This document shows, in pieces, positions 37,667 through 56,428 of a stretch of DNA of 64,000 nt; position 1 is the first letter of the stretch; each line of letters opens with the position of its first letter. The stretch covers positions 3,040,001-3,104,000 of the forward strand of contig CBDEGZ010000003.1 of assembly GCA_965238175.1 (NCBI GenBank), given 5' to 3'. Position numbers and translations under genes: made by a program. The notes below the pieces were generated by a model. That model had not been told where the DNA came from. It ran no database searches and was given only the letters and a program-made list of their open reading frames with translations. This stretch comes from Gammaproteobacteria bacterium. Lineage in GTDB: Bacteria; Pseudomonadota; Gammaproteobacteria; CAJXQU01.

Positions 37667-38560
37667 CTAGACTCCATTCAATGCCTGATAAGTGATTCCT
37701 CTAGGCCTGTTTGGATGCGCGGCATCTGGTCCACTTTCGATGACTTCGTAGCCTCGTCCTTCAAAAATATAGTCAGCGATAGCGCGTTCCTGTGCGATCA
37801 TCTCTGATATGTCTTCAATCAAGTCTTCGTAGTCACCGTGCGTATCACCATTTTCTTCGATAGGTCCCTCAGGTGCAAGGGGATAAACATCAGTCAGTAT
37901 ACCGAGATCCTCAACAAGTTCCATGTCATGATTTACCTTTGGCCGCTTGTCCAACTCACAAAACAGGTCAAGATATCTATCTCTTACTTCCTCTTCTTTT
38001 ATTTGGGGATGAATTAGTATTTTCTTCATGGCCATTTCCGGAAACAGTTTCCGAAATATCCCAGGTATGAATAAGCACTCCGATTCGATAATCTCGTCGC
38101 CTGCAAGACAATAGCCATCCTCCATATCAACGAAGGATTCGATAATTTCCACTAAAGGATCGTCATCAACCTCTCTGCCAAGCTTTCGATCAATATCGTA
38201 AGCGCTCAGTTCAAAAAACATTTGAAATTGCAGGCCAGAAAACGCGGCTGTCTTCGCGATTACTTGCTCATTTTTCAAATTGCGTCCTGAAGCAAAATCT
38301 ACTATTGGAGATATGATTATACTTAGCAATCCGAGCGAGTGATACACAGTGAAGAAATGAGAATAATAGTTTCTGCTTGAAATAGAAAATCTTGATATTT
38401 GGTCATTATTCAATACTTCTTTTTCTGTACCAAACAAATTCTTGATTACATCAACCCGATTACATTTTTCGAAAGCCAGTATAACGTCAGTTTCAATGAT
38501 ATATGAGCTAAAGCGATCCTTATCGGCACAACTTACCGGAATTTTCTTTAGTTGTGACAT
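37667..38560 (-). CDS. Acidic hypothetical protein (paralogue A)
   Basis: 297 aa; RBS aggag; shares motifs with the 38701-39624 protein. Confidence 0.8.
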   Translation of the reverse strand: MSQLKKIPVSCADKDRFSSYIIETDVILAFEKCNRVDVIKNLFGTEKEVLNNDQISRFSISSRNYYSHFFTVYHSLGLLSIIISPIVDFASGRNLKNEQVIAKTAAFSGLQFQMFFELSAYDIDRKLGREVDDDPLVEIIESFVDMEDGYCLAGDEIIESECLFIPGIFRKLFPEMAMKKILIHPQIKEEEVRDRYLDLFCELDKRPKVNHDMELVEDLGILTDVYPLAPEGPIEENGDTHGDYEDLIEDISEMIAQERAIADYIFEGRGYEVIESGPDAAHPNRPRGITYQALNGV

Positions 38561-38700
38561 GATCTACTCCTATTGTGAAAAATTAGGATTTCGCCAGATC
38601 AAAGTTTTCCCCGTCCGGTTGTCTAATATGATTAGCTGCGCGGCATTTCTTTTAACTGTACCGTATCACGCGCCTTACGATTCAGTTTTCCAAACTTGTT

Positions 38701-39624
38701 TCAATTTTTCCCTAAGTTTGGAATTTGGTAGCTAATAATTTTCTCTTTGGAAAGCGTATAACTGACTTCCCTCTGGTAGTCTCGCCCCTCAAACAGATAG
38801 TCAACAATCGCTTGCTCCTGCGCAATCAGTTCAGGATTGTCATCAAATTCTGCAAGATTATCAACCTCATCGTAAGTGTCGATATGGTCACCCAAATCAA
38901 AATCAAAGGCATCATAGGGCTCTAAAGTATCCACATAGGCAAATTTACCGACCAAACCTGGGTAACGAGACATCTTTACGGGTAAGTCAACATTTGAGCC
39001 ACCACAATGATCGTAGAGCTCCTGCTTGACCAGGAGTTGACTTTGAATGGAAGGGTAAAATATATCAGTAAGTTCACCCTGGTAAATTATTTCATGCCAA
39101 TAATTTTTATCCGTCAAAAACGCAAAAACAGTGGGACGATAATTTAGTAAAAACTCCAAAAATTCAAATTTCGGTAAATATACATCCCGACGCCGCTCGT
39201 CAATCGTAAGCTTATTCTCGTCGCTAAAGTAATTTAGTGTTAGATTGATATATTTAGTGCCCCGCAACAATTGGCTAGTTGATAACTTGTCTTGGATTGC
39301 TGTTAACTTGTCGTTTGCATCTGGCTTCGATTTATCATCATAATCACACTCAAATTCGTAATCAGAATAGGTGATCAAATCAATTGAACCATGAAACAAG
39401 CCCCCGAAAGAAATTTCAATGTTTTGAGAAATCAGATTTCTGCTTCTAATACAAAAACTTGATACATCTTTTGGATTGAATATATTGCCATCCAACTTAA
39501 ACAGGAGCTTTACAAAAGCGAGTAGGTCCCATTCTCTAACGACAATGTAAAAGTTGTCATCCCCAACTATCCATCCTTGATCCAGGTCGCTGTCGTCAAC
39601 AGTACGAAATTCAATCTGTTGCAT
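38701..39624 (-). CDS. Acidic hypothetical protein (paralogue B)
   Basis: RBS ggag before ATG 39624; ELIAQEQAIVDYLFEGRDY matches EMIAQERAIADYIFEGRGY in paralogue A. Confidence 0.8.
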   Translation of the reverse strand: MQQIEFRTVDDSDLDQGWIVGDDNFYIVVREWDLLAFVKLLFKLDGNIFNPKDVSSFCIRSRNLISQNIEISFGGLFHGSIDLITYSDYEFECDYDDKSKPDANDKLTAIQDKLSTSQLLRGTKYINLTLNYFSDENKLTIDERRRDVYLPKFEFLEFLLNYRPTVFAFLTDKNYWHEIIYQGELTDIFYPSIQSQLLVKQELYDHCGGSNVDLPVKMSRYPGLVGKFAYVDTLEPYDAFDFDLGDHIDTYDEVDNLAEFDDNPELIAQEQAIVDYLFEGRDYQREVSYTLSKEKIISYQIPNLGKN

Positions 39625-39977
39625 TTTGGTCTCCGCTTTATCTGGCCATATTGAAATGCAGTATCCTGCCTGTTCTTTGATCAATCAGGATAACTTGTTT
39701 CATTTTCCCCCAAAGTTTGGAATTTGATCCTGTTTTTCGCAATTCTTGCAAAAATTCGTTTGCATTTTATCATCAGAGACTCGCACTACGAAGGAAATTT
39801 CGAGCTTGCCTATTATTAATTTTATTCGATATATTACCTATCATACTCTGATCACCCTGGCAAAATTCTGACAACTTGTTTTATGGCATTACCATCATCA
39901 GAATAAATTTGAAGTAGAGAATGCATATGATCGAGATATTTAAAAAAGGAAAATTACGTCCTTTAAATGATCAAAAC

Positions 39978-41835: not shown

Positions 41836-43061
41836 TGTAGAAGTTTAGACCCAATCTGACACATCACTAAATCAAGCGGAGCGTAGCGACGCTTGATTTA
41901 GTGAGAGTTACCCGCTTTGATGTAACTGCAACGTAAACATCAAAACACAAAGAGGTAACTCTCATGATTCATACTAATGACAAAGTTATAAAACATAAAG
42001 TTGGTCTACTCAATCTCGCTGAAGAACTCGGCAATGTCTCAAAAGCCTGCAAGATGATGGGTTTGTCCAGAGATACATTTTATCGCTACAAAGAAGCGGC
42101 TGATGAAGGCGGTGTAGAAGCCTTGTTTGATCGTAATCGGCGTACCCCAAATCTTAAAAACAGAATCGACCCGGCTATTGAAACCGTTGTGCTCGAGTAT
42201 GCACTGGAAGAGCCCGCACATGGTCAAACGCGCACCAGTAACGAGCTGCGCAAACGGGGAACATTTGTCTCACCCAGTGGCGTTCGTTGTATCTGGCTTC
42301 GTCATGGTCTTGCTTGCTTTAAAGATCGCCTGAAGGCATTGTCTGATAAGGTAGCTGGTGAAGGCTTGATCCTCACTGAGTCTCAAGTCGCGGCGATGGA
42401 ACGCAAGAAAGACGACGATGAGGCTTGTGGCGAGATAGAGACGGCACACCCTGGTTATCTTGGCTCGCAAGATACTTACTATGTCGGTACTTTCAAAGGC
42501 ATTGGTCGGGTTTATCAACAAACGTTTGTTGATACTTACAGCAAGGTCGCTCACGCGAAACTGTACCCGACTAAAACACCGATTACGGCAGCTGACATGC
42601 TCAATGACCGCGTCCTCCCATTCTACGAACAACAACGTTTGCCTATGTTGCGCATTTTGACAGATAGAGGGACGGAGTATTGTGGGCGAGCTGACCAGCA
42701 TGATTATCAGCTTTATATGGCGTTGAACAATATCGAACACACCAAAACCAAGGTCAAATCACCTCAGACGAATGGTATTTGTGAGCGATTCCATAAGACG
42801 ATCCTCAATGAGTTTTATCAAGTCGCTTTGCGTAAGAAAATTTACCAATCGATTGATGAACTGCAACTCGACCTTGACGAATGGTTGCTCAAATACAATA
42901 CTCAACGAACTCACCAAGGCAAAATGTGCTGCGGGAGGACGCCGATGGAAACACTCATCGACGGACAAGCTATCTGGAAGGAAAAGTTTGTGAATTAAAC
43001 TTAACCTGACAGTCGGTTACTGATAATTGGGTAACTGTCAGATCAAATCTGAATTTCTACA
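41836..43061 (+). mobile_element. IS481-family element, copy 2 (1226 bp)
   Basis: Near-identical to 32255-33480; 7-bp target duplication TATCAAG; inserted in the last codons of zapA. Confidence 0.95.
41964..42998 (+). CDS. IS481-family DDE transposase
   Basis: Differs from copy 1 at two residues (E->Q, L->V). Confidence 0.95.
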   Translation: MIHTNDKVIKHKVGLLNLAEELGNVSKACKMMGLSRDTFYRYKEAADEGGVEALFDRNRRTPNLKNRIDPAIETVVLEYALEEPAHGQTRTSNELRKRGTFVSPSGVRCIWLRHGLACFKDRLKALSDKVAGEGLILTESQVAAMERKKDDDEACGEIETAHPGYLGSQDTYYVGTFKGIGRVYQQTFVDTYSKVAHAKLYPTKTPITAADMLNDRVLPFYEQQRLPMLRILTDRGTEYCGRADQHDYQLYMALNNIEHTKTKVKSPQTNGICERFHKTILNEFYQVALRKKIYQSIDELQLDLDEWLLKYNTQRTHQGKMCCGRTPMETLIDGQAIWKEKFVN

Positions 43062-43682: not shown

Positions 43683-46600
43683 TTACCATTTACCGATAAT
43701 ATCTAGGAACAGACCGTGAACATCGTAGTCCTGGCGAGTCAAATCATCATCAAACTTGGTGAAGTTATAACCCGCACCAACTTTAACGTTATCTCCAAGG
43801 TGACGATATAAACCCAATAATGCACCATGTCGCATATCGTCTTCCGTTTCAGACTGTAACCAACGGTATTCTGCCAGTCCATCCCAATGTTTGATAAAGT
43901 GATACCGTGCACGAACTACGGCTAGCCTTGCACCGGTTTCAAACCATTTACCTTGGTCACGATCTTGCCTGATATCACCACGTTTATAGGCTAATTTGCC
44001 ACCTAATTCCCAATATTCATCTAGATCGTAGAGTCCTTCTAGCGAGAGCACATGACTACGCTCATCATTTGGTCGTCGGGTAGATATCTGACCTTCGCTG
44101 GGCAGATCAAACAAGAAGCTATATTTAGCCAGTATATTCAGCTTGTCGTTAAATGTCGGTCGATATGCAGCACCGAAATCCAACTCCGTAAACTTGCCAT
44201 CTTTACGGCTATCGTCATCATCATTCGTCACAGAGAAGTTTAATTTACCTAACCACCTAAGACTCGGATCTTGCTTCCATTCGATGGCATTACTGGTTAG
44301 CCATTGTGTTGCGTTAACAGAACCTTCATCCTTTCTATATTCCAGTCGAGTGCTACCTTGCACACCATCTGATCCATACTGGGCTCCGACACTAAGAACA
44401 TCACGTTCAATATCTTCAGCACCTGTTACATCTAGATTACTGGATTGCATGGATGCAGAAAGACTCCAGGCATCGCTCAAGGCAAAGTCCAAACCATATA
44501 CCTTACTGACGCCGTCTTGAAGATCACTTTCAACAAACTGGTTCTCGCTAAACAATTTCAAACCATTTGCATATTCCCGACGACTACCCATCGTTAAGGT
44601 TGATCGTTTGCTGCCTGTTCGATCAGGATCTATTGCATAAGTACCGTACAAATCCACACCACTTGCGGTTGTATAGTTAGCGCCAACTTGACTTGTAGCT
44701 CCATCACCAAAACCACTGGATAATGAAAGCGTGGTCTTATCATTTACTGCATATTCAACACCTGCAACATAGGCATTTCCACGATCTCCGACACTGACCT
44801 CACCTTTCAATGCAAGCCGATCATTAACCTGAGTTGTCACACCCACTGTTGCCATATCATTGTCGTCATAATCATCCTTTTCAGAGAGCGTACCTTGTAG
44901 CGCACCGTACATCCGTGTCTGCTCCGTGAAGAAGTATTCCGCACTGACACCCAATAAATTTGCTGATCCATCTTCTCCGGTCAGAAAATCATCAATATCT
45001 TCATGTCGAATTTCGGCACCAACGGCAAATTCATTTGTGACTGCATAATCGCCTTGCAGACTTAGGTTTGTTTCTTTGCTTAAACCGTCTCTATCGTAAA
45101 CCGTTCCTCGTCCTGATATTGTCAGGTTTTCAGTCGCTTGAATTTGTCCTTCAAGACCAGCATCTAAAGTGTCAATACCGTTATCAACACGCGCGGCCGA
45201 GAAACCGGAATCCCGATCTTTATACCAAACTTCAAGTCGGCCATCTGTTTTACCTTCCGTCACTTCGGTTAAATTAACTTTACCTTCGATACTAAAGGCT
45301 CTGCCATCAACTCTATCATTACCATTAACCGGGTTTTTATCACTAAACGACAAACCTCCATCTAGAGATTGAGAATCACTATCCGTCTGACGTGCATCTG
45401 TCTTCGCGTATTCCCCTTTTACGTATGTTCCCTTACCAAGTTTCAGAGTCACATCTGTACCATGCATTCGATAATCACTATCATCACGATTTTCCTTAAC
45501 CACCGTTGCACCAAGTGCTAAATTATCAGTAACCCAAACCTTACTTCGCCCACCGGCAGTTATCTTGTCAGCTTCAAAACCATCCGCTACGAATTCATAA
45601 TCTGATAACAAGTAAACATTGTTACCTTCCAACGGACGATCTTTTATGATTGCTGGCGCTGAATTATTGGCAACCTGAGTCAGAGGACGACTGAGAATTA
45701 GACGTCCTTGAATATAATCAATCTCATAGTCTCGACCTTCTTCAAGGGTGATATTTTCGAGCACTCTTTCTGTATCTTTAGCCCTTATTTCAACCCAGAC
45801 TTTTTCTGATCCCTGAACAATATCTTTATCTCTCAGGTAATAGAGACTACCGCCAGTTGCACTAAATTCATTATGTGCAAATGAAGTTTGCGCTTCTGAT
45901 CCAAAACCATTGAGTTCAACTTTATGATCTCCAAATTTTGTTGTATTCACAGAACGATGTTGCAACTGAACACCATAGAGGCTGCGATCATATTGGGCAA
46001 ACTCATTACCCGTGAATCCAGTATGATAATTACCCCAGACGAAATGCGACTTATCCCAATCAACCCGAACATAGGCAGCACCTTGGGTATCAACATCACT
46101 TATCGTTGTCGAATCATCACCATAAATTGGATAAAACCTATCTGAATCTAATCGACGGAAGATCCGACTTGGATCTTTTCTCTCAAGATTGGAGCCGATA
46201 TTTTTCAGTTCATCTTCAGTCGTATCAATCTGTGCCGTGATCAAATATTTACCTTTGATTTTTCCTTTTAAGTACATGGCAAGCCGACCATCGACGAAAA
46301 TTTCCTCATCAAAATGATCATCGACTTCTAACGGTGATGCATTTCCTGAAACGCTATTATTTCCTATCGTCATGTTCGCAAGACCAACGAGGAACATATA
46401 CTTACCCGTCACATCAATCGGTACCGCATACGCCCACTTTTCTTCAGTCGAAGTTTCTAATTCCAGATCAAAAGTATGTTGGCCCGGTGGTAAATGTTGT
46501 TCGATCACAAAGGTATTGTTCTCAGCAACAGGTACTTCAACACCATCAACCATCAATTTATGATTTTTGTTGAGATCAACACCATGCAGTCTAACTCGAC

Positions 46601-49600
46601 TACCATGAACAGGAATTGTCTGGCGTGCAAGTTGTGATTTACCATAAATCGCTAAACCATCTGCGATTTGAGCATTTCTTATCAAATCTGCATCGATCGT
46701 TTTCAAGAACTGTGGCGCTGTTTCATCCATATGTCCTTCGGCATCATAGGTTCGTAATACGTAAGTCAATGGAGCTCCTGTTTCATAACGTTGCCCATTA
46801 AAACCTTCCCCATCCCAAGTAACCTTGTCCATGAAGCTAATATCATTGCCTCTTAAAGTCGCGATTGGTTGAACCATATCTCGATCAGAATCAGCAAAAA
46901 TAGCCAATTCCCAGTGATCAATAAAATGCTTGTAGTTACTGTACAAACTAAAGGTCACAGGTTCAGCCACTGATCCATCATTGATGATCAACGCGCTATG
47001 CGCCATGATTGACAGTCGCGGATCATTTGCAGCTGGATCTTCGACTGCCCAGATTGCGCCTCCGTCAGGTAAAAGGATCCTACTGTCACCTGGTTTACTG
47101 GCGACGAACACTTTTTTCTCAACTGTTCTTTCTTCAATTATGTCGTAGTGAACTTCAATTTCTGATCGCCGATTTAATTGCATTCCTTCTGGCGTTTCAT
47201 TTGTCGCCGCCGGCTCATTAAAGGAACGACCAGATGTCGTGATACTACCTTTTGATAATCCCATTCGTTGTTCAAAAATTCTGGCCGTTTTTGCTGCCCG
47301 AGCTTCTGATAAGCCTTGATTATCGCGATATTTTCTGGCAGTAGCCGGCGCGAGTCGTTGCGTATCGGTATGCCCAACAATATGTACGCGTATGTTCGGT
47401 TTATCACTGAGTAAATAGAGAACTTCCTGAAGTTGTTTTATGTGTTCAGGACGAATAAATGATTTACCAGAATCAAAATAAATCGGATCGACCACATTGG
47501 AAAGTTTAACTACCTCTTCCTTCACTGTCTCCTGAACCTCCGGTCGACCGGCTAATGTAAGTCGACCCGGTTCAGGCAACTTGACGGCAAAATTGAATTT
47601 CGACACCAAGGCCTGAGTAATACGCAAAACACGCGGATTTTCACTTACAAATACTGTTCCTTCCGGCAAAGTTGCTGGATCAACTTTGACAATATAATTA
47701 CGTCCTCGATCCAGTCGTCCACCATCAATATCAGCAATGTGGTATCGACCATAACGATCAGTTTCGATCAGTAATCCTTCCACTGTTGCAAGACGAACGC
47801 CGGGGATCCCTTCTTCGCCTTTATCCTGTACACCATTACTATTTCGATCGTCAAAAACTTTACCTATAATAGTGGTCTTTTGTAGTATTGGATCTTGAAT
47901 AATCCGTACCTTTGCAGTCGCCTGGTTACTCACCGGCCCACCAAAGAATAATGCGATTGCGGTATTCACATATTCGCCTGCAACTACACCCGTCGATACA
48001 CGTGTAAAGTACGCGATTTGGATTGCCTCACCGGGAGCAAAACTAAGCCCGCCGAAGTTGATCGGATCAACCCCCGTTGGGTTAATGATCGTCTTCAGAT
48101 CATCGAGTGTTCCCAGCTCACCATCAGCACCTTCTCTGATCAATAATGCTGATTCCGGTACATAACGGAAACCACCGGGTAGATCATCTTGAATATCAAT
48201 ATTGTCCAGATTATTTGATGTAGTATTTTCAGCTTCTAGCGTATAGAAAACAATATCGCCAATAACCGCTTCAGATCGGTCCGCTCTTTTCGATAATAAA
48301 ATTGAGCCGGTTGTTGCCAGTGGATCGATCGGAATATGATTATTGATCACGTCCTGATCACCAGCTTCTAGTGCCCAGGTATAGAAATATCTTGTTGCAT
48401 CTCCTGCTTGTGGTGGTGTTGCCTGTGCTTGTAAGTTACACGGCGGACCTGTGGTTGCATCACCCGGACACGTGGTGGCATCCAGTGCACCTGCCTCTGA
48501 AAGAATTGTTGTTGAGGGTTGTATAAAACCACCAGGAATTGTCGTCAATCTGACCCTGTAATCACCTGCCAGTAGAGTACATCCAGCGACACCAAGTTGT
48601 AGATCAAATCGATATTGTCCATTTGCTGATGTTACTTGTCCCGATTGTCCTGGTAATAAACAGGCCGTCGGCACAACATTGTTAGAACTGTCAACAAGAT
48701 CGATCCCCACTCCCGGCACTGGAGCTCTAGTAACAGTGTTATAGATGACTCCGCTAGGATCAACCGGTATCGGAACATTCACAACCGTGGCATTTGGAAT
48801 AGGTATTGTCTCTCTATAGAAAGTCACTCCCTGAGGTGTAATAGCATCAATAGTGAAATTTCCTGGTGTAAGACCTGTAAAATCAAACAAACCATCTGCT
48901 GTAGTGACCAGCGTTCCCACAGTATTCCCATTACTATCTCTAGCAATAATGGTCCATCCTTCCAATGGGTTTTCAGTACTTCCTAATTGATCGTTCCCAT
49001 CCGTATCTAGCCATACAACACCGGTTATACCGGTAGTGTAAGTAATAGGCGTTGGATCATCACTCCCAGTTGTGTCACCAGGTGCTCCCGGATTAGTTGT
49101 AGTTGGGTCAACTCCACTATCAGAAAGATCGGTAATAAAAGAACCTGGAGCCGCAACGTCTTCACCCGTAATTCTAGCCTGATTGGTTAAAGGGTTAGGA
49201 ATACCACTTGCTTGAGGGTTTATTAGTACGGAAAAATCAAAAGTTATCTGCTGACCAGCATCCAACCGCCCTGATGTACCATCAAATAAATTCGGTAGAC
49301 TATTAGTAATATTAGGATTTGTTGTAGCAGTGCTTGATACAATGGTAGAGCTTCCTGTCTCATAAGCGACAAAGGCGCTCCCAAATTGAGTCGAGACATC
49401 GTCAACCAAACTTAAATTATTAAGGTTCAGCACCCCTGTATTTTGTATGACGAGGCGGAATCTGAGCCGAAGATTACTACCTACCTGTGTGACTTCTGCT
49501 ACTTCTTTAGTTAACGAAATTGCTGAGCTTACTGCAAGTATAATTTGGGTTGGATCATTTTCTGAACTGTTGCCGCCTAAAGAGATTGTTTCCGACGGAT

Positions 49601-51875
49601 CGCCATCGCCATCAGGATCTGGATCAGTTCCATTGTCAGATTTATCAAGTACTTGTGGATACCCATTAGGTAAAAGTGCACTCGTGATCTCGGCCTGATT
49701 AAAAAATGGACCCGTTTGAGTTCCAATATCAACACGTACCGTAAGCGTCAAACTTTGACTTGTACCTGCTGCTATAGTGTCTGAACCTGCAAGTAAGTTT
49801 TTCTGGGATTGTCCATCATAAGGTGTCACTGGAGCAGTCAATGCCCCACGGTTAACTGCTGTAACAGCAATACTGTTTACCCCAGGAAAAGCCGCAGTTA
49901 AATCATCTGTAACTTGAACATTTAATGCATCTTCAGCAGCTAAATTCTCGATCACCATTCCGAACTCAATGTCATACGTCGTTCCTGAAACTAAACTGAC
50001 ACTGTTAACTTGTTTTGCTATCCCGAGCGAAATGAACCGACAACCATAGAGGGGTATAGCTGGATCGCCGGGATTGATTACCGATGCTAAACCAACTCCC
50101 CCTGCCGAACCGTTATAATTACCACCGTCTGGACCTGTTCCACCTGTGAGAGCATTACCTACTCCACCAGCACCACCTATAACGTTTTGGCCCGCAAGGC
50201 CATTTGTATGCGTAGTATCCGATAACCAGATAACACCACCAGCGCCACCACCACCAGCACCGTCTTGGCCATTCTGACTTGAACCACCAGCACCACCCGC
50301 TGCCGAAAGCGGTGTATTTATGACTGCAGTTCCAGTATGAACGAGGATTGTTCCGCCAGCACCACCACCACCACCACCTTCAGATTGTGCAGACCCAGCA
50401 GAGTCGCCATCAGCGCTTATCGTCCCATTACCTGTGATGTTCTTAGCTCTGATATATAAAATACCACCACCTGCTTGTCCACTAGAAACTGCCAGGACAA
50501 AACTGGCTAGATTATTACCGTTACTTCCACCACCACCACCACCCATGGCAAATCGAGTTGCAGTAGGCGTCCCACCATTAATTTGTTGGAAAAACGTACC
50601 ACCACCAATGCCGTGCGAGAACTGGTTATCAGTACCCCGTCCACCATCACCACCTCGATTTATATGGCCACCGCCACCGCCACCGCCATCTTCAGAAAAA
50701 CCTGCGCCAGAACCTGCATTACCAGGAGCACCTTGTCCCGTATCCCTTGTCCAATCCGTTTGCCATAAGACAGGAGGAATTGTAGCCGGAACAGGGTCAT
50801 TCGTATTTCCGAACAGGGCATCATTATCCACATCATCTCTAACGAATCTATATATATTCTGATAAGGGGCAGTATTGCCGAGATCGTCAGTTCCAGGATA
50901 ACCTACTGCACCTACTTCTTCACCTAAGGTGCCAGCATTTTCACTTAATAAGACCTGACTAAACGTCCGACTCGGTGAGCCAGCGATCCCCTCTCCCTTA
51001 AACCCAAAGTTATAGACATTCGCTTCAACTGTACCGGAAGGTCCATCACCATCATCCAAATTACGATTCCTGAAGAACTGTCCACCTCGAAAGCCTCTAC
51101 CCGTTGCATTGATACTACCCGCTACATTCAAGGTTTCTTGAACATTAAGCGCTGCAATACCACCCCATCGCCCATTCCATCGATCGGGAACTACCTCTCC
51201 TGTAGCGGTAATATCAAGGTTTACAAACTGAGGTACCTTGATAACTTGATAGCGACGAAAACCTGAATTGCCCGAAACCGTATCCGAGCTACTGTAAGCA
51301 TTGGTCAAACCACCACCAACTGCCGTACCTTCAACGGGAACTGAACCACCAGATACCGGACCCGTGGCAATCAAATACTCATAATGACCTACAGCTACAT
51401 TTGCAGGGAGATAGCCGGCTTGTTCAAAGCCGCCATTGCCATCACCATATTGCCCTACTGGCTGTCCAGCATCCACCAAATGCTGGTTAACAAAATGATT
51501 GTCGGCAGAGTCAATATCCGCCCCCTGCATCTGTACGATAATTAATATATCGCCCGCTGCAATGGTAGAGCTAACTCGCGCATCGAGATTCGTCGCCTGA
51601 GGACTATCAATGGGTATAGAGGTTGAACCAGCAGAAACTGTGACAGCGCCTGTCGGTGCTGGGTAATAGACATTTACACGAGTGAGTGGCGTGGTAATTT
51701 GTAGATGACCATCTTGTCCTGTAGAGCAAACAAGATCAGCCCACGCTGTTCCAGAAAAGGTGGCGAAAAGAAGGCTAATTAAACCAACAATACCAAACTT
51801 CTGTATCTGCTTTAAAAATAAACTAACTACCGTTCTACCTGAATCATTCAGATATTTTTTGGTCCGATTTCTCAT
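43683..51875 (-). CDS. Giant outer-membrane protein: Gly-rich N-domain, DUF11 and SdrD-B repeats, OmpA-like domain, C-terminal beta-barrel
   Basis: 2730 aa; signal peptide ending AWA; poly-Gly region; three DUF11-like and two SdrD-B-like units; IYFDSG..GHTD..LSEARA..NRRSEI; ~900 aa of amphipathic strands ending ..DIIGKW. Confidence 0.88.
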   Translation of the reverse strand: MRNRTKKYLNDSGRTVVSLFLKQIQKFGIVGLISLLFATFSGTAWADLVCSTGQDGHLQITTPLTRVNVYYPAPTGAVTVSAGSTSIPIDSPQATNLDARVSSTIAAGDILIIVQMQGADIDSADNHFVNQHLVDAGQPVGQYGDGNGGFEQAGYLPANVAVGHYEYLIATGPVSGGSVPVEGTAVGGGLTNAYSSSDTVSGNSGFRRYQVIKVPQFVNLDITATGEVVPDRWNGRWGGIAALNVQETLNVAGSINATGRGFRGGQFFRNRNLDDGDGPSGTVEANVYNFGFKGEGIAGSPSRTFSQVLLSENAGTLGEEVGAVGYPGTDDLGNTAPYQNIYRFVRDDVDNDALFGNTNDPVPATIPPVLWQTDWTRDTGQGAPGNAGSGAGFSEDGGGGGGGHINRGGDGGRGTDNQFSHGIGGGTFFQQINGGTPTATRFAMGGGGGGSNGNNLASFVLAVSSGQAGGGILYIRAKNITGNGTISADGDSAGSAQSEGGGGGGAGGTILVHTGTAVINTPLSAAGGAGGSSQNGQDGAGGGGAGGVIWLSDTTHTNGLAGQNVIGGAGGVGNALTGGTGPDGGNYNGSAGGVGLASVINPGDPAIPLYGCRFISLGIAKQVNSVSLVSGTTYDIEFGMVIENLAAEDALNVQVTDDLTAAFPGVNSIAVTAVNRGALTAPVTPYDGQSQKNLLAGSDTIAAGTSQSLTLTVRVDIGTQTGPFFNQAEITSALLPNGYPQVLDKSDNGTDPDPDGDGDPSETISLGGNSSENDPTQIILAVSSAISLTKEVAEVTQVGSNLRLRFRLVIQNTGVLNLNNLSLVDDVSTQFGSAFVAYETGSSTIVSSTATTNPNITNSLPNLFDGTSGRLDAGQQITFDFSVLINPQASGIPNPLTNQARITGEDVAAPGSFITDLSDSGVDPTTTNPGAPGDTTGSDDPTPITYTTGITGVVWLDTDGNDQLGSTENPLEGWTIIARDSNGNTVGTLVTTADGLFDFTGLTPGNFTIDAITPQGVTFYRETIPIPNATVVNVPIPVDPSGVIYNTVTRAPVPGVGIDLVDSSNNVVPTACLLPGQSGQVTSANGQYRFDLQLGVAGCTLLAGDYRVRLTTIPGGFIQPSTTILSEAGALDATTCPGDATTGPPCNLQAQATPPQAGDATRYFYTWALEAGDQDVINNHIPIDPLATTGSILLSKRADRSEAVIGDIVFYTLEAENTTSNNLDNIDIQDDLPGGFRYVPESALLIREGADGELGTLDDLKTIINPTGVDPINFGGLSFAPGEAIQIAYFTRVSTGVVAGEYVNTAIALFFGGPVSNQATAKVRIIQDPILQKTTIIGKVFDDRNSNGVQDKGEEGIPGVRLATVEGLLIETDRYGRYHIADIDGGRLDRGRNYIVKVDPATLPEGTVFVSENPRVLRITQALVSKFNFAVKLPEPGRLTLAGRPEVQETVKEEVVKLSNVVDPIYFDSGKSFIRPEHIKQLQEVLYLLSDKPNIRVHIVGHTDTQRLAPATARKYRDNQGLSEARAAKTARIFEQRMGLSKGSITTSGRSFNEPAATNETPEGMQLNRRSEIEVHYDIIEERTVEKKVFVASKPGDSRILLPDGGAIWAVEDPAANDPRLSIMAHSALIINDGSVAEPVTFSLYSNYKHFIDHWELAIFADSDRDMVQPIATLRGNDISFMDKVTWDGEGFNGQRYETGAPLTYVLRTYDAEGHMDETAPQFLKTIDADLIRNAQIADGLAIYGKSQLARQTIPVHGSRVRLHGVDLNKNHKLMVDGVEVPVAENNTFVIEQHLPPGQHTFDLELETSTEEKWAYAVPIDVTGKYMFLVGLANMTIGNNSVSGNASPLEVDDHFDEEIFVDGRLAMYLKGKIKGKYLITAQIDTTEDELKNIGSNLERKDPSRIFRRLDSDRFYPIYGDDSTTISDVDTQGAAYVRVDWDKSHFVWGNYHTGFTGNEFAQYDRSLYGVQLQHRSVNTTKFGDHKVELNGFGSEAQTSFAHNEFSATGGSLYYLRDKDIVQGSEKVWVEIRAKDTERVLENITLEEGRDYEIDYIQGRLILSRPLTQVANNSAPAIIKDRPLEGNNVYLLSDYEFVADGFEADKITAGGRSKVWVTDNLALGATVVKENRDDSDYRMHGTDVTLKLGKGTYVKGEYAKTDARQTDSDSQSLDGGLSFSDKNPVNGNDRVDGRAFSIEGKVNLTEVTEGKTDGRLEVWYKDRDSGFSAARVDNGIDTLDAGLEGQIQATENLTISGRGTVYDRDGLSKETNLSLQGDYAVTNEFAVGAEIRHEDIDDFLTGEDGSANLLGVSAEYFFTEQTRMYGALQGTLSEKDDYDDNDMATVGVTTQVNDRLALKGEVSVGDRGNAYVAGVEYAVNDKTTLSLSSGFGDGATSQVGANYTTASGVDLYGTYAIDPDRTGSKRSTLTMGSRREYANGLKLFSENQFVESDLQDGVSKVYGLDFALSDAWSLSASMQSSNLDVTGAEDIERDVLSVGAQYGSDGVQGSTRLEYRKDEGSVNATQWLTSNAIEWKQDPSLRWLGKLNFSVTNDDDDSRKDGKFTELDFGAAYRPTFNDKLNILAKYSFLFDLPSEGQISTRRPNDERSHVLSLEGLYDLDEYWELGGKLAYKRGDIRQDRDQGKWFETGARLAVVRARYHFIKHWDGLAEYRWLQSETEDDMRHGALLGLYRHLGDNVKVGAGYNFTKFDDDLTRQDYDVHGLFLDIIGKW

Positions 51876-52085
51876 TCAACATCCCCTCAGAGTTGCAATT
51901 TGATACCGACAGCAGATTAAAAATAACCAGTTGTTCGACATCCTCAGTTGTTCAAGCTATATCACTTACAATACTAAATTTGTATTTATAACTGCATGTT
52001 TCATGCCATTTTCACCAAATTAAAGACTTTTATTTCACTTCAATTGTAGTTACCTTACATTTTTATTATTTTTAGAGATTTGTAT

Positions 52086-52667
52086 ATGTCTGGAGCCCTC
52101 TATTATCAACTCGAAACAACCCTGTTAAACGCAGGCTCGATAATTTCACCTGCTGAAGCACAGGGCGCATTGTGTGGGATCCTTAGTCTCTCTTCAACAC
52201 TTGATATTAATGTCTGGATGAATTTCATCCTTGACGAACAAACTCAGGCTGATACTCAAGCTGAACAACGATCAAACCTGAATGCTGAGCTGGTCGAACT
52301 GCAGGATATGACTGAAAATGGTTTTGATCCAATCTCAGGTGGTATGGAACTCTTATTACCTCCAGATGAGACAGATCTACCTGAACGATTAGAAGCACTA
52401 GCTTCCTGGTGCGAAGGGTTTCTTTACGGAGTTGGAGTCAGTGATAATGAGTTAGGCAAAAAGAACAAATTATCTGAAAGTGCAGAGGAATTTATAACCG
52501 ACGTTCGTGAAATCGGAAAGCTCGATACAAAATCTGAAGATGAAGACGCCGAACATTACTATATGGAACTCTTTGAATATATCCGCGTAGGTGTGCTAGT
52601 TTTCCGTGAAGAAATCCAAGCGAATGCTATAATTTCAAGCTCTCTCTCAAATAAAATTCAACATTAA
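52086..52667 (+). CDS. ygfB: UPF0149 family protein (YgfB/YecA)
   Basis: SPAEAQG.LCG, LLLP.DE..L.ER.EAL..WCEGFL.G, EL.EY.RVG; upstream of pepP. Confidence 0.9.
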   Translation: MSGALYYQLETTLLNAGSIISPAEAQGALCGILSLSSTLDINVWMNFILDEQTQADTQAEQRSNLNAELVELQDMTENGFDPISGGMELLLPPDETDLPERLEALASWCEGFLYGVGVSDNELGKKNKLSESAEEFITDVREIGKLDTKSEDEDAEHYYMELFEYIRVGVLVFREEIQANAIISSSLSNKIQH

Positions 52668-52669
52668 TT

Positions 52670-53983
52670 ATGGAAAGAAAAGAATTCGCACGCCGTCGCA
52701 AACGCCTGATGGATATCATGAACATCGGCAGTATCGCAATTTTGCCAACTTCAGAAATACGTAGTCGCAATAATGACGTCGATTATCAATATCGACCCGA
52801 TAGTGATTTTTATTATCTAACCGGCTTTCCAGAACCAGAAGCCGTGGCCGTTTTAATTCCTGATCGCAAACATGGTGAATTTATCCTCTTTTGTCGTGAA
52901 AAAGATCCAGAAATGGAAACATGGCATGGTCGACGCTCTGGTCTTGAAAAGGCGGTTGAATATTACGGTGCTGATGATGCATTTCCAATTGGCGATATTG
53001 ATGAAATTTTACCGGGCTTGATCGAAAACAAAGATCGCGTTTTTTACAACATGGGAATTGATCCTAATTTTGATGCGCATATACAAGGCTGGGTTAATCA
53101 AGTGCGAAATAAAGCCCGATCAGGTGTCACCGCACCAGAAGAATTTATCTCACTAGGCCACGCATTGCATGAACTACGTCTGTTTAAAAGTCGTGGTGAG
53201 ATCAAAGCCATGCGTCGTGCAGCACAGATCTCGGCCAAGGCACACACTCGTGCAATGAAACAATGTCGGCCAGGCATGAAGGAATACCAGATTGAAGCAG
53301 AGTTATTACACGAATTTATGAAGCATGGATGCCGTTCATCCGCATACCCATCAATTATCGGTGGCGGCGAAAATGGATGTATTCTCCATTACACAGAAAA
53401 TTCTGATCCATTGAATGATGGCGATCTATTATTGATCGACGCTGGCACTGAACATGATTGTTACGCAAGCGATATTACCCGCACCTTCCCAGTTAACGGC
53501 CAGTTTAGCCCAGCACAAAAAATACTCTATGAAATTGTGCTGCAAGCGCAGGAAGCTGCAATAGAAAAAATCCAACCAGGCAACCACTGGAATGATCCAC
53601 ATAAAGCCGCCGTTCGGATAATTACCCGCGGACTAAAAGAAATCGGCCTACTCAAAGGTCGCCTACCAACTTTGATCAAACAAGAAGCCTATCGGCCTTT
53701 TTATATGCATCGTACTGGCCACTGGTTAGGAATGGATGTACACGACGTTGGTGACTACAAAGTCAATGGGGATTGGCGCATGCTTGAAGCAGGTATGATT
53801 ATGACTGTTGAGCCAGGGCTCTATATCAAAGAGCATTCTCGCGGTGTCGCAAAAAAATGGTGGAACATGGGCATTCGTATCGAAGACGATGTTCTCGTGA
53901 CTCGAAACGGACACGATATCCTTAGTAAAGATGTACCAAAATCCATCGCAGAAATTGAAGCTCTGATGGATCATGCAACCTGA
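52670..53983 (+). CDS. pepP: Xaa-Pro aminopeptidase
   Basis: SDFYYLTGFPEPEA, LHY.EN, YASDITRTFP, HRTGHWLGMDVHDVG, EPGLY, GIRIEDDV. Confidence 0.97.
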   Translation: MERKEFARRRKRLMDIMNIGSIAILPTSEIRSRNNDVDYQYRPDSDFYYLTGFPEPEAVAVLIPDRKHGEFILFCREKDPEMETWHGRRSGLEKAVEYYGADDAFPIGDIDEILPGLIENKDRVFYNMGIDPNFDAHIQGWVNQVRNKARSGVTAPEEFISLGHALHELRLFKSRGEIKAMRRAAQISAKAHTRAMKQCRPGMKEYQIEAELLHEFMKHGCRSSAYPSIIGGGENGCILHYTENSDPLNDGDLLLIDAGTEHDCYASDITRTFPVNGQFSPAQKILYEIVLQAQEAAIEKIQPGNHWNDPHKAAVRIITRGLKEIGLLKGRLPTLIKQEAYRPFYMHRTGHWLGMDVHDVGDYKVNGDWRMLEAGMIMTVEPGLYIKEHSRGVAKKWWNMGIRIEDDVLVTRNGHDILSKDVPKSIAEIEALMDHAT

Positions 53984-55208
53984 TTTTGATTGCTTGATCG
54001 TCGGTGGTGGAATGGTTGGAGCGAGCCTGGCCTGCGCACTTCGCAATCAAACTTTAGACAATCGACCGATCAAAATTGCGGTTGTCGAAGCATCCGCTCC
54101 CAGTAAAAATAATCCTCCTAGCTATGATGATCGTGGACTAGGAATTGCTCCTGCATCGCAACGGATCCTGCAAGGTCTTGGCTTATGGGGAAAACTCAAA
54201 GTGGAAGCAACACCGATCAAAAAAATTCATATTTCTGATCGTGGCCATTTTGCAACAACGCGACTGTCAGCAGAAAAAATGGGCGCCGTTCAACTTGGCC
54301 ATATTGTCATCGGACGTGCGTTGGGTGAAGTTCTACAAAATAGCATCGACAACTCTGCAAATATCGAATTCATCTGTCCAGCAACCGTTTCTAATATAGA
54401 ACATCAAAGTGATCATATTTCTATAGACATTCAGAACCCAAACAAGACTAAAAAAATCACCGCAAGTTTACTGATTGCTGCTGACGGTGGTAATTCACAA
54501 GTTAGAAAAATACTCGGTGTTGAAGCTGAAACTAAAGAATATGATCAAACTGCAATAGTAACCAACGTCACACCTGAAATACCGCATAACAATACCGCCT
54601 TTGAGCGTTTCACATCCACAGGCCCTCTGGCATTACTCCCCTCTTCGGATCAAAGATGTGTCGTTGTCTGGACAACTAAAACTGATCAAGTCGATTCCAT
54701 CATGCAACTCGAAGATCCGGAGTTTCTTGACCAATTAGAAAAAAGATTTGGCCGTCGATTAGGAAAGTTTTTAAAGATGGGCCAGCGTCGAAGCTACCCA
54801 ATGAATTTGATCAAAGCCAAGCAACTGATAGGTCCACGATTTGCAATTCTCGGTAATGCTGCACACACCATTCATCCAAATGCTGCACAGGGTTTAAACC
54901 TTGGGCTTAGAGATATTACGCAAATGGCAGAGTTAATCGTTGATGCCGCTCGCAACAATAAAGATATTGGTCACCCAGAATTACTGAATACTTATGCGGA
55001 ATCACGTCAAAAAGATCACCAGCAAGTGATCCATTTTAGCGATGGTTTGACCAAACTATTCTACAACGACAACCCTGTTCTAATCACCCTACGGAATCTT
55101 GCAATGTTAGGTGTTGAACATTTCCCACCTGCAAAACGTGCTTTAACAAGACGTGCGATGGGACTATCAGGTGAGCCACCCCGTTTGGTCAGAGGGCTAC
55201 CTCTTTGA
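53973..55208 (+). CDS. ubiH: 2-octaprenyl-6-methoxyphenol hydroxylase
   Basis: GGGMVGASLA, AADG, AFERFT..GPLALLP, GNAAHTIHP.A.QG.NLGLRD; pepP-ubiH synteny. Confidence 0.92.
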   Translation: MQPDFDCLIVGGGMVGASLACALRNQTLDNRPIKIAVVEASAPSKNNPPSYDDRGLGIAPASQRILQGLGLWGKLKVEATPIKKIHISDRGHFATTRLSAEKMGAVQLGHIVIGRALGEVLQNSIDNSANIEFICPATVSNIEHQSDHISIDIQNPNKTKKITASLLIAADGGNSQVRKILGVEAETKEYDQTAIVTNVTPEIPHNNTAFERFTSTGPLALLPSSDQRCVVVWTTKTDQVDSIMQLEDPEFLDQLEKRFGRRLGKFLKMGQRRSYPMNLIKAKQLIGPRFAILGNAAHTIHPNAAQGLNLGLRDITQMAELIVDAARNNKDIGHPELLNTYAESRQKDHQQVIHFSDGLTKLFYNDNPVLITLRNLAMLGVEHFPPAKRALTRRAMGLSGEPPRLVRGLPL

Positions 55209-56428
55209 GAACAGTACGTAATAATAAAATAGACTATGATTTGATCATCATAGGTGGCGGTGTCACCGGATCTGTTTTAGCTGTCCTGTTAGAACAAACC
55301 AATCTGAAAATTGCACTTGTAGAAGCTAACCGTTTTGATCCCGAAAAAAATGATCCTCGTGTGTTTGCTATCACGCTATCTTCAGAACAAATTTTTCGTT
55401 CTGCTGGAATTTGGGAAGAGCTTCAATCTCAACCCATGGGACATTTCAGAGAGATAAACGTTTGGGATGCGAACGGTTCTGGAAACATTCATTTCGACAG
55501 TAAAACAATTTGCGAACCAACCTTAGGTTACATAATCGAAAACCAAAAAATTCAATCAGCCCTTAAAAATAAAATTGATCCGCTCGAAAATATTGACTGG
55601 CATTGCCCAGAAAAAATTGATCAACTGACAACACATTCTGATCATGTTTCTGTCTTACTAGAATCAGGAAAAAAAATCACATCAAAATTGATCGTTGGTG
55701 CCGATGGTGCTAATTCGCGCGTGCGTGAACTTGCTGAGATTAAAAACGAAATCTACGACTACCAACAAACTGCGATTGTTTGTTCAGTAAAAACCCAAGT
55801 TGTACATAATGATATTGCCAGACAACGTTTTTTAAGCTCCGGGCCACTCGCCTTTCTACCACTTTCAGATCCGCATATGAGCTCGATTGTCTGGTCAACG
55901 ACACCAAATCAAGCCCAAGCTTTGCTCAAAAGCAACGAAGAAATATTTCATCAAGAACTTGAACAAGCATTCGATTCAAAACTCGGATCCATTCTGGAAT
56001 CTAGCCATCGATTCAGCTTTCCTCTCACTCGTGCACATGCAAAAAACTACGTCACAGAAAGAATCGCCTTGATCGGCGATGCTGCTCATCGCGTACACCC
56101 GTTAGCCGGGCAAGGTGCAAACCTAGGAATTCTCGATGCCACCACATTAGCCGAAATTCTTATACAACATTCTGAACATGATATTGGCCGCAAATCCATC
56201 CTGCGAAAATACGAACGCTGGCGCAAGGGCGAGAACCTCAGCGTTATTGCCACGATGGATGGTTTTAAATACTTATTCGGATCAACTTTAGAACCCGTTC
56301 AATGGATCAGAAACACTGGGCTTGATATAACTAACTCTTCAACTTTTGCAAAAAACCTGATCATGCGAAAAGTGATAGGGTTGGAAGGCGATCTTCCTAA
56401 GATTGCTCTTACTAATGATATCTCATGA
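55205..56428 (+). CDS. ubiI: FAD-dependent ubiquinone hydroxylase UbiI/VisC
   Basis: GGGVTG, GADGANS.VR, ARQRFL..GPLAFLP, GDAAHRVHPLAGQGANLG; follows ubiH. Confidence 0.87.
   Translation: MRTVRNNKIDYDLIIIGGGVTGSVLAVLLEQTNLKIALVEANRFDPEKNDPRVFAITLSSEQIFRSAGIWEELQSQPMGHFREINVWDANGSGNIHFDSKTICEPTLGYIIENQKIQSALKNKIDPLENIDWHCPEKIDQLTTHSDHVSVLLESGKKITSKLIVGADGANSRVRELAEIKNEIYDYQQTAIVCSVKTQVVHNDIARQRFLSSGPLAFLPLSDPHMSSIVWSTTPNQAQALLKSNEEIFHQELEQAFDSKLGSILESSHRFSFPLTRAHAKNYVTERIALIGDAAHRVHPLAGQGANLGILDATTLAEILIQHSEHDIGRKSILRKYERWRKGENLSVIATMDGFKYLFGSTLEPVQWIRNTGLDITNSSTFAKNLIMRKVIGLEGDLPKIALTNDIS

Follow-up and report, generated by a model that had tools for sequence, protein, structure and literature searches.

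Within a 64,000-nucleotide stretch of DNA from a gammaproteobacterium (GenBank assembly GCA_965238175.1, contig CBDEGZ010000003.1, positions 3,040,001 to 3,104,000; hereafter the window), a single gene on the minus strand (43683..51875) encodes a giant protein of 2730 amino acids (aa). This protein has an N-terminal passenger composed of a head and a stalk, followed by an OmpA-like domain, two Ig-like domains, and a very large C-terminal β-barrel. On balance, we favor the reading that the gene encodes a giant-barrel adhesin display system, complete in a single chain, of a kind that is widespread and apparently undescribed. The results that bear on this reading were obtained by computation and consist of the order of the domains, the fold of the barrel, a protein family having split and fused forms, the conservation of the last passenger domain (the junction domain) and its co-occurrence with the barrel, and a controlled prediction of the complex between these two.

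The gene is one uninterrupted open reading frame (ORF) in the translation of the window, starting at ATG and ending in a stop codon after 2730 codons. A preliminary description of this DNA had listed a signal peptide, a Gly-rich head, a DUF11/SdrD_B stalk, an OmpA domain, Ig-like linkers, and strands running to a terminal Trp; all of these were found in that order. The observation was real, and its interpretation is supported at the computational level. New with respect to it are the junction domain, which is strictly coupled to the barrel, and the place predicted for this domain in the barrel lumen. The gene as a whole and the features from the junction domain onward are as follows.

43683..51875, minus strand: whole gene, 2730 aa plus stop; a single ORF with the sole copy of the barrel module and the sole copy of the junction domain in the genome
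47577..47873, minus strand: junction domain, aa 1335-1433, SdrD_B-like, last domain of the passenger (SdrD_B above cut-off; conservation; predicted docking)
47481..47576, minus strand: linker between junction and OmpA domains, aa 1434-1465 (sequence only)
47151..47480, minus strand: OmpA-like peptidoglycan-binding domain, aa 1466-1575 (Pfam PF00691; PDB matches)
46401..47081, minus strand: two Ig-like β-sandwich domains, aa ~1599-1825, start of the conserved ~1130-aa module (model residues 20-246, local confidence mostly 80-94)
43686..46400, minus strand: predicted giant outer-membrane β-barrel, aa 1826-2730, ~44 strands, ending in ...DIIGKW (AlphaFold2; structural matches; strand parse)
46077..46223, minus strand: long conserved loop after strand 3, aa 1885-1933, with a near-invariant YGDDST (aa 1918-1923) (alignment; complex contacts)
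45621..45860, minus strand: small β-domain between strands 7 and 8, aa ~2006-2085 (AlphaFold2 strands at model residues 432-482)

The giant C-terminal barrel and its family

The last 1151 aa (1580-2730) were modeled with AlphaFold2 (AF2) from a 38-row alignment of relatives, which yielded a mean predicted local distance difference test score (pLDDT) of 79.4 and a predicted template modeling score (pTM) of 0.77. The model has Ig-like sandwiches at model residues ~20-246 and unbroken strands from 247 to 1151 (corresponding to aa 1826-2730). Parsing of the DSSP assignment gave 44 strands with consistent up-and-down parity. In this parse, the turns on the presumed periplasmic side average 4.9 aa; on the other side, where two of the loops measure 49 and 80 aa, the mean length is 13.0 aa. 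Each strand has one hydrophobic face (hydrophobic fractions, 0.62 vs 0.25). Because these turn and loop lengths and strand faces follow the usual rules for barrels, the region reads as an outer-membrane barrel. The AF2 model and the strand parse thus agree with the membrane barrel of the preliminary description, which had misjudged its size: rather than being usher-sized, the barrel is much larger, at 905 aa and ~44 strands. Ushers have 24 strands and SprA has 36, so that the barrel as modeled would be about twice the size of the former and exceed the latter.

Comparison of the barrel model with known structures by Foldseek returned LptD, BtuB, SlpA, MtrB, SprA, and FimD, with query-normalised TM scores of at most 0.21 (0.14-0.16 for BtuB and Cir). 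VIA-align returned maltoporin (Z 16.0), FimD (Z 13.5), PapC (Z 12.6), and SprA (Z 11.1), the last being the longest alignment at 617 residues. All of these matches are to membrane barrels and all are partial, so that, in keeping with what had been proposed, no TonB receptor, autotransporter, usher, LptD, or SprA matched over the full length in either comparison. Most matches span model residues 247..1151, and contacts in the complex model described below fall on both the first and the last strands. For these reasons the model indicates that the barrel is closed, with its first and last strands adjacent. Searches of the PDB with the sequence of the last 1151 aa and with a profile of the alignment of relatives (A1) gave 0 matches each. 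Neither Pfam nor NCBIfam has a family on aa 1580-2730; with Pfam at E ≤ 10, Fil_haemagg, MalQ_N, and YadA_anchor appeared there, each below its own cut-off, and were dropped as noise.

The C-terminal residue is Trp in the giant protein and Tyr, Phe, or Trp in 213 of 240 relatives. Within the YGDDST loop, G340 and D341 (model numbering) are invariant in the family alignment, and Y339 and S343 are nearly so. The most conserved stretch of the family consensus is the inserted β-domain (aa ~2006-2085), a candidate cap or plug.

A phmmer search with aa 1580-2730 against 1.84 billion cluster representatives identified 3288 clusters at E ≤ 1e-3, of which 1021 remain at E ≤ 1e-30. The arrangement is more than chance, as the C-terminal 931-1151 aa of the giant protein have thousands of relatives; alignments over the full length of the module have 33-90% identity. 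The long relatives (1500-4778 aa) all have the module at the C-terminus (40-90% identity), and most also have an OmpA domain. Their N-terminal parts vary and include DUF11, DUF7507, SdrD_B, Calx-beta, CARDB, and others. In the source databases, the relatives are named only 'OmpA family protein', 'SdrD B-like domain-containing protein', 'uncharacterized repeat protein (TIGR01451)', or 'hypothetical protein'. The giant protein has both features of this family, a C-terminal ~1130-aa module and an aromatic last residue.

Many relatives stand alone as proteins of ~1160-1300 aa, composed of a signal peptide and the module, including the two Ig-like domains. In genomes, such stand-alone module genes directly follow a giant gene of the DUF11, SdrD_B, Calx-beta, or He_PIG type on the same strand. 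For example, a 2441-aa protein (He_PIG, Calx-beta, DUF7507, and DUF11) precedes a 1241-aa module in Hydrogenophaga (locus L004), a 2378-aa protein (11 DUF11 units) precedes a 1229-aa module in Roseobacter (L049), and a protein of at least 2766 aa (SdrD_B and DUF11) precedes a 1355-aa module in Hyphomonas (L009). In the fusobacterium Psychrilyobacter (L052), a frame of at least 955 aa (DUF7507, DUF11, and two OmpA domains) overlaps the start of a 1176-aa module gene. It had been suggested that the gene in the window is a fused version of a multi-gene system made of a DUF11 fiber and a translocon. These pairs speak for that idea, because in the relatives a giant DUF11-type gene directly precedes a separate module gene.

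Only one of 33 genome loci examined is fused like the giant protein (L001, from a gammaproteobacterial metagenome-assembled genome, MAG). At the other 32, the module ORFs are 1185-1532 aa in length, save two broken ones (713 and 761 aa). Among 250 relatives, a sample biased by one source search that took long proteins only, 146 are apparently complete: 104 are fused to a passenger, 12 consist of OmpA and module, and 30 of the module only. The number of OmpA domains detected by BLAST in the 104 passenger-fused proteins is zero in 30, one in 46, and two in 28. A module match (E ≤ 1e-10) occurs in 47 of 400 sampled genomes of the same class, representing 42 of 320 genera, in open frames of ~1200 to 11,777 aa. 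The named carriers belong to the Gamma-, Beta-, and Alphaproteobacteria, the Myxococcales, and the Fusobacteria. A genome of the same genus as that of the window (G279) has a split system, in which a junction-bearing ORF of 2171 aa is paired with a module of 1418 aa (37% identity). Another genome of this genus (G088) yielded no match, but as 8000 of its bases lay outside the search, this is no evidence of absence.

The largest frame in this sample (locus L063, G155:C2:459805-463992) ends in the junction domain and module and extends to 11,777 aa, showing how large passengers get. A sister family was also noted, made up of ORFs of ~1940-2100 aa whose match to the barrel query (E 1e-30 to 1e-37) is confined to its first ~340 residues, which comprise strands 1-8 with the YGDDST loop and the inserted β-domain. 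Examples are found in G105:C693, G168:C12, G287:C28, G126:C37, and G332:C33, and most such genomes have no junction domain.

The junction domain and its predicted seat

The junction domain (aa ~1335-1433) scores 33.7 bits as SdrD_B, as compared to a cut-off of 29.7. All of the split passengers compared with the giant protein end in a homologue of aa ~1354-1431. By tblastn and blastp, the junction domain was located upstream of the module or fused to it at 53 of 65 loci and in 177 of 291 relative proteins. Its distance to the C-terminus takes fixed values, being ~1110-1170 aa with no OmpA domain, ~1300 aa with one, ~1450 aa with two, and ~1620-1650 aa in a further group. The gene split falls right after the junction domain in Hydrogenophaga, after the OmpA domains in Fusobacteria, and nowhere in the giant protein. 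The giant protein thus has at aa 1335-1433 what also marks the family, namely a conserved SdrD_B-like last passenger domain that is fused to the module or adjoins it.

The junction domain is ~55-80% identical among the closer fused relatives, as against 40-57% for the barrel. An alignment of 24 junction domains (A2) shows 45-90% identity to the giant protein and 15 invariant columns. Searched against this genome, the junction profile gave a single match (E 8e-47) and did not pick up the other SdrD_B unit of the giant protein. Of the 400 sampled genomes, 35 are positive for the junction domain, and 34 of these are also positive for the module, the two lying within a few kilobases of each other or in one frame. 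The 13 genomes that have the module and lack the junction domain show mostly weak partial matches (query residues ~28-370, ORFs of ~2000 aa) or fragments at contig ends.

A complex of the barrel (model residues 247-1151) and the junction domain (alignment residues 6-99) was predicted along with three controls. The score was 0.72 (0.70, 0.74, and 0.72 in separate runs), while the best of the three controls scored 0.00. The runs had at least 93% of contacts in common, a partner pLDDT of at least 81, and ~180 contacts. The complex model supports binding between the junction domain and the barrel without showing it. In this model, 58 of the 94 junction residues touch the barrel. In strands 1-3 and the last ~9 strands, the barrel is contacted at alternate (i, i+2) residues; further contacts are made by several of the periplasmic turns and by residues 334-349, which are part of the long YGDDST loop. 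The face that is touched is mostly polar (D, E, R, and K), and the face bearing W, Y, and L is untouched. Because the contacts fall on an alternate, mostly polar face, the junction domain is predicted to sit inside the lumen, near the seam and on the periplasmic side. The contact positions have a conservation of 0.66, compared to 0.45 for the rest of the barrel, and 0 of 10,000 random sets reached as high a value. They make up 26 of the 119 barrel positions that are at least 80% conserved.

Passenger, OmpA domain, and genomic setting

The part of the giant protein that precedes the junction domain has the following features.

51738..51875, minus strand: long signal peptide, aa 1-46, with a basic 26-aa n-region, a hydrophobic core, and predicted cleavage between AWA and D (by eye)
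50040..51737, minus strand: head, aa 47-612, with an N-terminal β-sandwich part and a Gly-rich β-solenoid-like part
49677..50027, minus strand: DUF11 (CLIPPER) unit 1, aa 617-733, followed by an Asp-rich loop (Pfam PF01345)
49161..49526, minus strand: DUF11-like unit 2, aa ~784-905, followed by an Asp-rich loop (DUF7507 below threshold)
48771..49034, minus strand: SdrD_B / CarboxypepD_reg-type unit, aa ~948-1035 (Pfam PF17210 and PF13620; match to SdrD in the PDB at aa 952-1018)
48321..48758, minus strand: Cys-containing prealbumin-like unit, aa ~1040-1185, with four Cys (below threshold only)
47958..48296, minus strand: DUF11 unit 3, aa 1194-1306 (Pfam; NCBIfam B_ant_repeat)

The signal peptide is ~46 aa in length, its cleavage site being read by eye as lying between MRNRTKKYLNDSGRTVVSLFLKQIQK-FGIVGLISLLFATFSGTAWA and DL. 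The Gly-rich head (aa ~47-612) has no family in Pfam. The NCBIfam model gliding_AgmC_N (NF047640) scored 107.1 bits on the head, over aa 377-557 only and below its equivalog-domain cut-off of 275. To judge by sequence, what the head has in common with AgmC is Gly-rich chemistry and not family membership; a search of the literature for 'AgmC' with 'gliding' found nothing relevant. The AF2 model of the head (pLDDT 78.5, pTM 0.84) had no Foldseek match at E ≤ 0.001. VIA-align gave middling scores of at most Z 8.6, to β-helices and two-partner secretion (TPS) domains, with the TPS β-helices at Z 7.4-8.0. A protein atlas search with the head found unnamed clusters only. For the Gly-rich part, a fold of the polyglycine-II type was considered as a candidate. 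Homologues of the head occur on proteins with type IX secretion system (T9SS) tails (PF18962 and PF13585), on sortase-associated proteins, on C25-peptidase proteins, and on TSP3/DUF4215 proteins. Such company (T9SS tails, sortase-associated proteins, and C25 peptidases) makes an extracellular position of the head probable.

In the stalk, the DUF11 family (PF01345) scored 58.4 bits against a cut-off of 24.6, and two units (aa 617-733 and 1194-1306) are above threshold. Having DUF11 above the Pfam cut-off in a long repeat protein, the giant protein belongs with the DUF11/CLIPPER fibrillar adhesins. The SdrD_B match (PF17210) covers aa 952-1020, and SdrD_B and CarboxypepD_reg together cover aa ~952-1033. 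The preliminary description had named two DUF11-like units with Asp-rich loops, and Pfam recognizes the first of these. The second, scanned alone, has DUF7507 as its best match at 20.9 bits, below the cut-off of 27, and aligns to the DUF11 repeats of the Roseobacter passenger (L049). The Cys-containing unit had been called carboxypeptidase-regulatory-like, a name that is plausible; scanned alone, the unit scored below threshold (CarboxypepD_reg, 16.8 bits vs a cut-off of 32.3; SdrD_B, 15.9 bits). The third DUF11 unit, the second SdrD-B unit, and the OmpA domain of the same description are all above their Pfam cut-offs.

The OmpA-like domain (PF00691, aa 1466-1569) scored 51.8 bits against a cut-off of 27.2. 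It matches Acinetobacter baumannii OmpA (3td3), PomB, and MotB in the PDB, and retains the GHTD, LSEARA, and NRR motifs of 3td3. With a score above the cut-off and the Asp/Arg motif, it belongs to the OmpA-like family and is likely to bind peptidoglycan. The linker that precedes it (aa 1434-1465) might provide the route from the lumen to the periplasm. The two Ig-like domains that follow it have no family in Pfam.

On one side the giant gene is flanked by ygfB (UPF0149), pepP, ubiH, and ubiF, and on the other by an insertion sequence (IS) transposase and a catalase. No secretion, chaperone, pilin, type I secretion system (T1SS), or small DUF11 genes are among these flanking genes, which agrees with the earlier statement that no accessory genes lie beside it. 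The ygfB-pepP-ubiH-ubiF cluster (52080-56428, plus strand) is divergent from the giant gene, and the ~200-bp intergenic region common to both (51876-52079) must hold both promoters. In the MAG locus L001, which encodes a protein 90% identical to the giant protein, the order is ubiH, pepP, ygfB, giant gene, and catalase, with no IS and again no other secretion genes beside the giant gene. The IS transposase in the window (HTH_29 and rve/rve_3; 41964-42998, plus strand) lies between the catalase and the 3' end of the giant gene. As L001 keeps the gene order without the IS, this element is a recent, strain-specific insertion at a stable locus. Past the catalase lie two ORFs of 297 and 327 aa (37667-39684, minus strand), for which Pfam gave no family at E ≤ 0.001.

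Elsewhere in the genome (C3:~241300-242040, outside the window; loci L066/L067), DUF11 occurs in one more open frame, which is 1697 aa in length and has neither the barrel module nor the junction domain. Because no copy of either is present there, its anchoring or export route must, as far as its sequence tells, differ from that of the giant protein.

Proposed mechanism, alternatives, and known systems

We propose a mechanism of five steps. In the first, Sec would export the protein to the periplasm, and in the second, the barrel assembly machinery (BAM) would insert the C-terminal ~905 aa as one ~44-strand barrel with an aromatic end. Third, the head and the DUF11/SdrD_B stalk (aa ~47-1330) would exit via the wide barrel to form a fibrillar adhesin. 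Fourth, the junction domain (aa 1335-1433) would stay behind in the lumen, in its periplasmic half, packed against the seam strands and the YGDDST loop, where it might serve as a stopper or a socket joint. Fifth, the chain would re-enter the periplasm, where the OmpA domain would bind peptidoglycan and tie the assembly to the cell wall, and the two Ig-like domains would lead back to strand 1 of the barrel. In the split relatives, which have adjacent passenger and barrel genes, contact between the junction domain and the barrel would hold the fiber non-covalently. Everything from the second step onward we infer, including insertion by BAM, the exit of the passenger through the barrel and its exposure at the surface, adhesion, and the binding of peptidoglycan; the complex model gives computational support to the fourth step only, retention in the lumen. 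Secretion or surface display of the giant protein would follow from these steps. It is possible, though we lean slightly toward doubt, that the system constitutes a new outer-membrane export and display pathway unrelated to types I-XI. This pathway would have a ~44-strand single-chain barrel, the largest yet proposed, along with a CnaB-type stopper and OmpA coupling, and would be encoded by one, two, or three genes interchangeably across the Pseudomonadota, Myxococcota, and Fusobacteriota.

Several points weigh against the display reading. An OmpA domain N-terminal to a barrel by default leaves everything before it in the periplasm. The passage of the passenger across the membrane is a deduction, and how a ~44-strand pore would be sealed is unexplained by the proposal. 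For the number of strands, the closure of the barrel, and the position of the junction domain in the lumen, the evidence consists of DSSP strings, match ranges, and contact lists. Of 80 solved complexes, 58 attain the complex score of 0.72, as do 2 of 110 mismatched pairs, a calibration that is rough only, with custom alignments having been used here. The conservation of the contact positions is not independent of a model that itself reads the alignment. The two Ig-like domains, possible occupants of the same site, were absent from the modeled complex, whose controls included no close cousin such as the other SdrD_B unit.

Four other explanations were weighed. The barrel and OmpA domain might do no more than fix the protein in place, with the passenger surfacing by other means or the barrel being, for example, a channel, and with the junction contact being structural. 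Barrels and OmpA domains are common anchors, nothing computed here demonstrates translocation, and the main text of a preprint describes a published relative merely as having an 'OmpA-like anchoring domain' (bioRxiv 10.1101/2025.04.25.650565). However, no other secretion genes flank the giant gene in the window or in L001, and the passenger has no T9SS or T1SS signal among its Pfam matches. Furthermore, ~44 strands far exceed what an anchor needs, and in split and fused forms alike the barrel goes strictly together with the junction domain that ends the passenger, all of which makes a mere anchor unlikely. Shedding of the passenger is another option, in which the barrel acts as a transporter for a passenger that is then cleaved off and released or, in split systems, simply secreted. 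The split pairs do resemble TpsA/TpsB in gene order, and the head has some β-helical likeness to TPS domains, although at middling scores (Z 7.4-8.0). But TPS, POTRA, and ShlB families are absent from the Pfam matches, the OmpA tether of the fused form argues for retention, and the complex model, with its ~180 contacts, predicts a tight hold of the junction domain on the barrel. We therefore consider release improbable.

A third option has the N-terminal part stay in the periplasm, tethered to peptidoglycan and the outer membrane, so that the protein is an envelope-spanning scaffold or an oversized OmpA-type brace. The placement of the OmpA domain between passenger and barrel gives just this topology by default, and a part in the envelope has been discussed for DUF11 proteins of chlamydiae and archaea, among other places in PMC10787695. 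Passengers of thousands of residues, in open frames of up to 11,777 aa, are difficult to reconcile with this, as is the makeup of the passengers from adhesin-stalk domains. The homologues of the head on T9SS cargo and sortase-associated proteins likewise speak against it, and the variable, shuffled nature of the passengers fits surface exposure better, such that we regard a periplasmic scaffold as very improbable. That the barrel belongs to an ordinary class missed by Pfam (autotransporter, usher, TonB-dependent receptor, LptD, or MtrB-like) is hardly credible. There are generic matches to maltoporin, FimD, and SprA by VIA-align and to LptD and BtuB by Foldseek, but none covers the model, the PDB searches by sequence and profile came back empty, aa 1580-2730 has no family in Pfam or NCBIfam, and the barrel has roughly twice as many strands as these classes do.

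A literature search, made outside subscription journals and supplements, found no description of the barrel or the system. The nearest published protein is B9T28_05395 of Acinetobacter silvestris, a CLIPPER (DUF11) fibrillar adhesin; the main text of the preprint that describes it has no occurrence of 'barrel' and proposes no export route (bioRxiv 10.1101/2025.04.25.650565). This protein is probably in the same family as the giant protein, judging from that text. If the display reading is correct, many Gram-negative bacteria present their largest adhesins at the surface by a route outside the textbooks, and by a barrel wider than the T9SS translocon SprA. The module reaches ~12% of the sampled genomes of the same class, and is also found in alpha- and betaproteobacteria, myxobacteria, and fusobacteria. 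Such a system would touch on how Ig-like domains get through the outer membrane when folded or cross-linked, how barrels of this size are assembled by BAM, how so wide a pore stays sealed, and what mechanical link joins surface fibers to peptidoglycan. Experiments could start from the split and fused variants that occur in nature and from the predicted stopper-socket interface, and the system is a possible scaffold for displaying very large proteins.

Among known systems, the giant protein lies outside types Va, Vb, and Ve, in line with the earlier suspicion that it fits no type V subclass. As in classical autotransporters (type Va), it has in one chain a Sec signal (by eye), an N-terminal passenger, and a C-terminal barrel with an aromatic end; it has no accessory genes, and a passenger-proximal segment is predicted to lie in the lumen. 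Unlike these, its barrel has ~44 strands and 905 aa instead of 12 strands and ~300 aa, the segment predicted in the lumen is a folded CnaB/SdrD_B-type domain instead of a helix or hairpin, and an OmpA domain and two Ig-like domains intervene between passenger and barrel. The autotransporter barrel family PF03797 gave no match on aa 1580-2730 even at E ≤ 10. As for two-partner secretion (type Vb), which pairs an Omp85-type transporter having POTRA domains with a cargo having a TPS domain, no ShlB, POTRA, or TPS family is among the Pfam matches. Inverse autotransporters (type Ve), such as intimin and invasin, likewise carry on a single chain a passenger of Ig-like repeats, a barrel, and a domain that binds peptidoglycan in the periplasm. 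Their barrel is N-terminal and their passenger C-terminal, whereas the order here is passenger, OmpA, and barrel; they have LysM and a 12-strand barrel where the giant protein has OmpA, and Pfam detects neither LysM nor IAT_beta in the latter.

SprA of the T9SS likewise forms one very large barrel from a single chain, with room in its lumen for folded domains. It differs in having no sequence relation to the giant barrel, which has no T9SS context and is fused to its cargo or encoded beside it; Pfam detects no Por_Secre_tail or CHU_C in the passenger. The chaperone-usher systems (FimD and PapC) have in common with the giant protein a large barrel, an inserted small β-domain, flanking Ig-like domains, and a fiber of Ig domains. 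Their fiber is polymerised from subunits, whereas here it would be a single polypeptide, and their barrel has 24 strands as against ~44. There is no usher family (PF00577) among the Pfam matches and no chaperone or pilin gene among the neighbors, and the FimD and PapC matches are partial. TonB-dependent receptors have a 22-strand barrel, an N-terminal plug domain, and a TonB box; their Pfam families, Plug and TonB_dep_Rec, are likewise absent. LapA-type RTX adhesins resemble the giant protein as giant adhesins retained by a folded domain in or under an outer-membrane channel, which is predicted here. LapA uses a T1SS with a TolC-like channel, an N-terminal retention module, and control by LapG and LapD, whereas the giant protein has a Sec signal, a putative C-terminal stopper, and its own barrel, with no T1SS genes nearby. 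By analogy, the giant protein would work most like a classical autotransporter, with a peptidoglycan-binding domain as in an inverse autotransporter and a folded stopper as in LapA, and its family looks like an undescribed kind of surface-display system.

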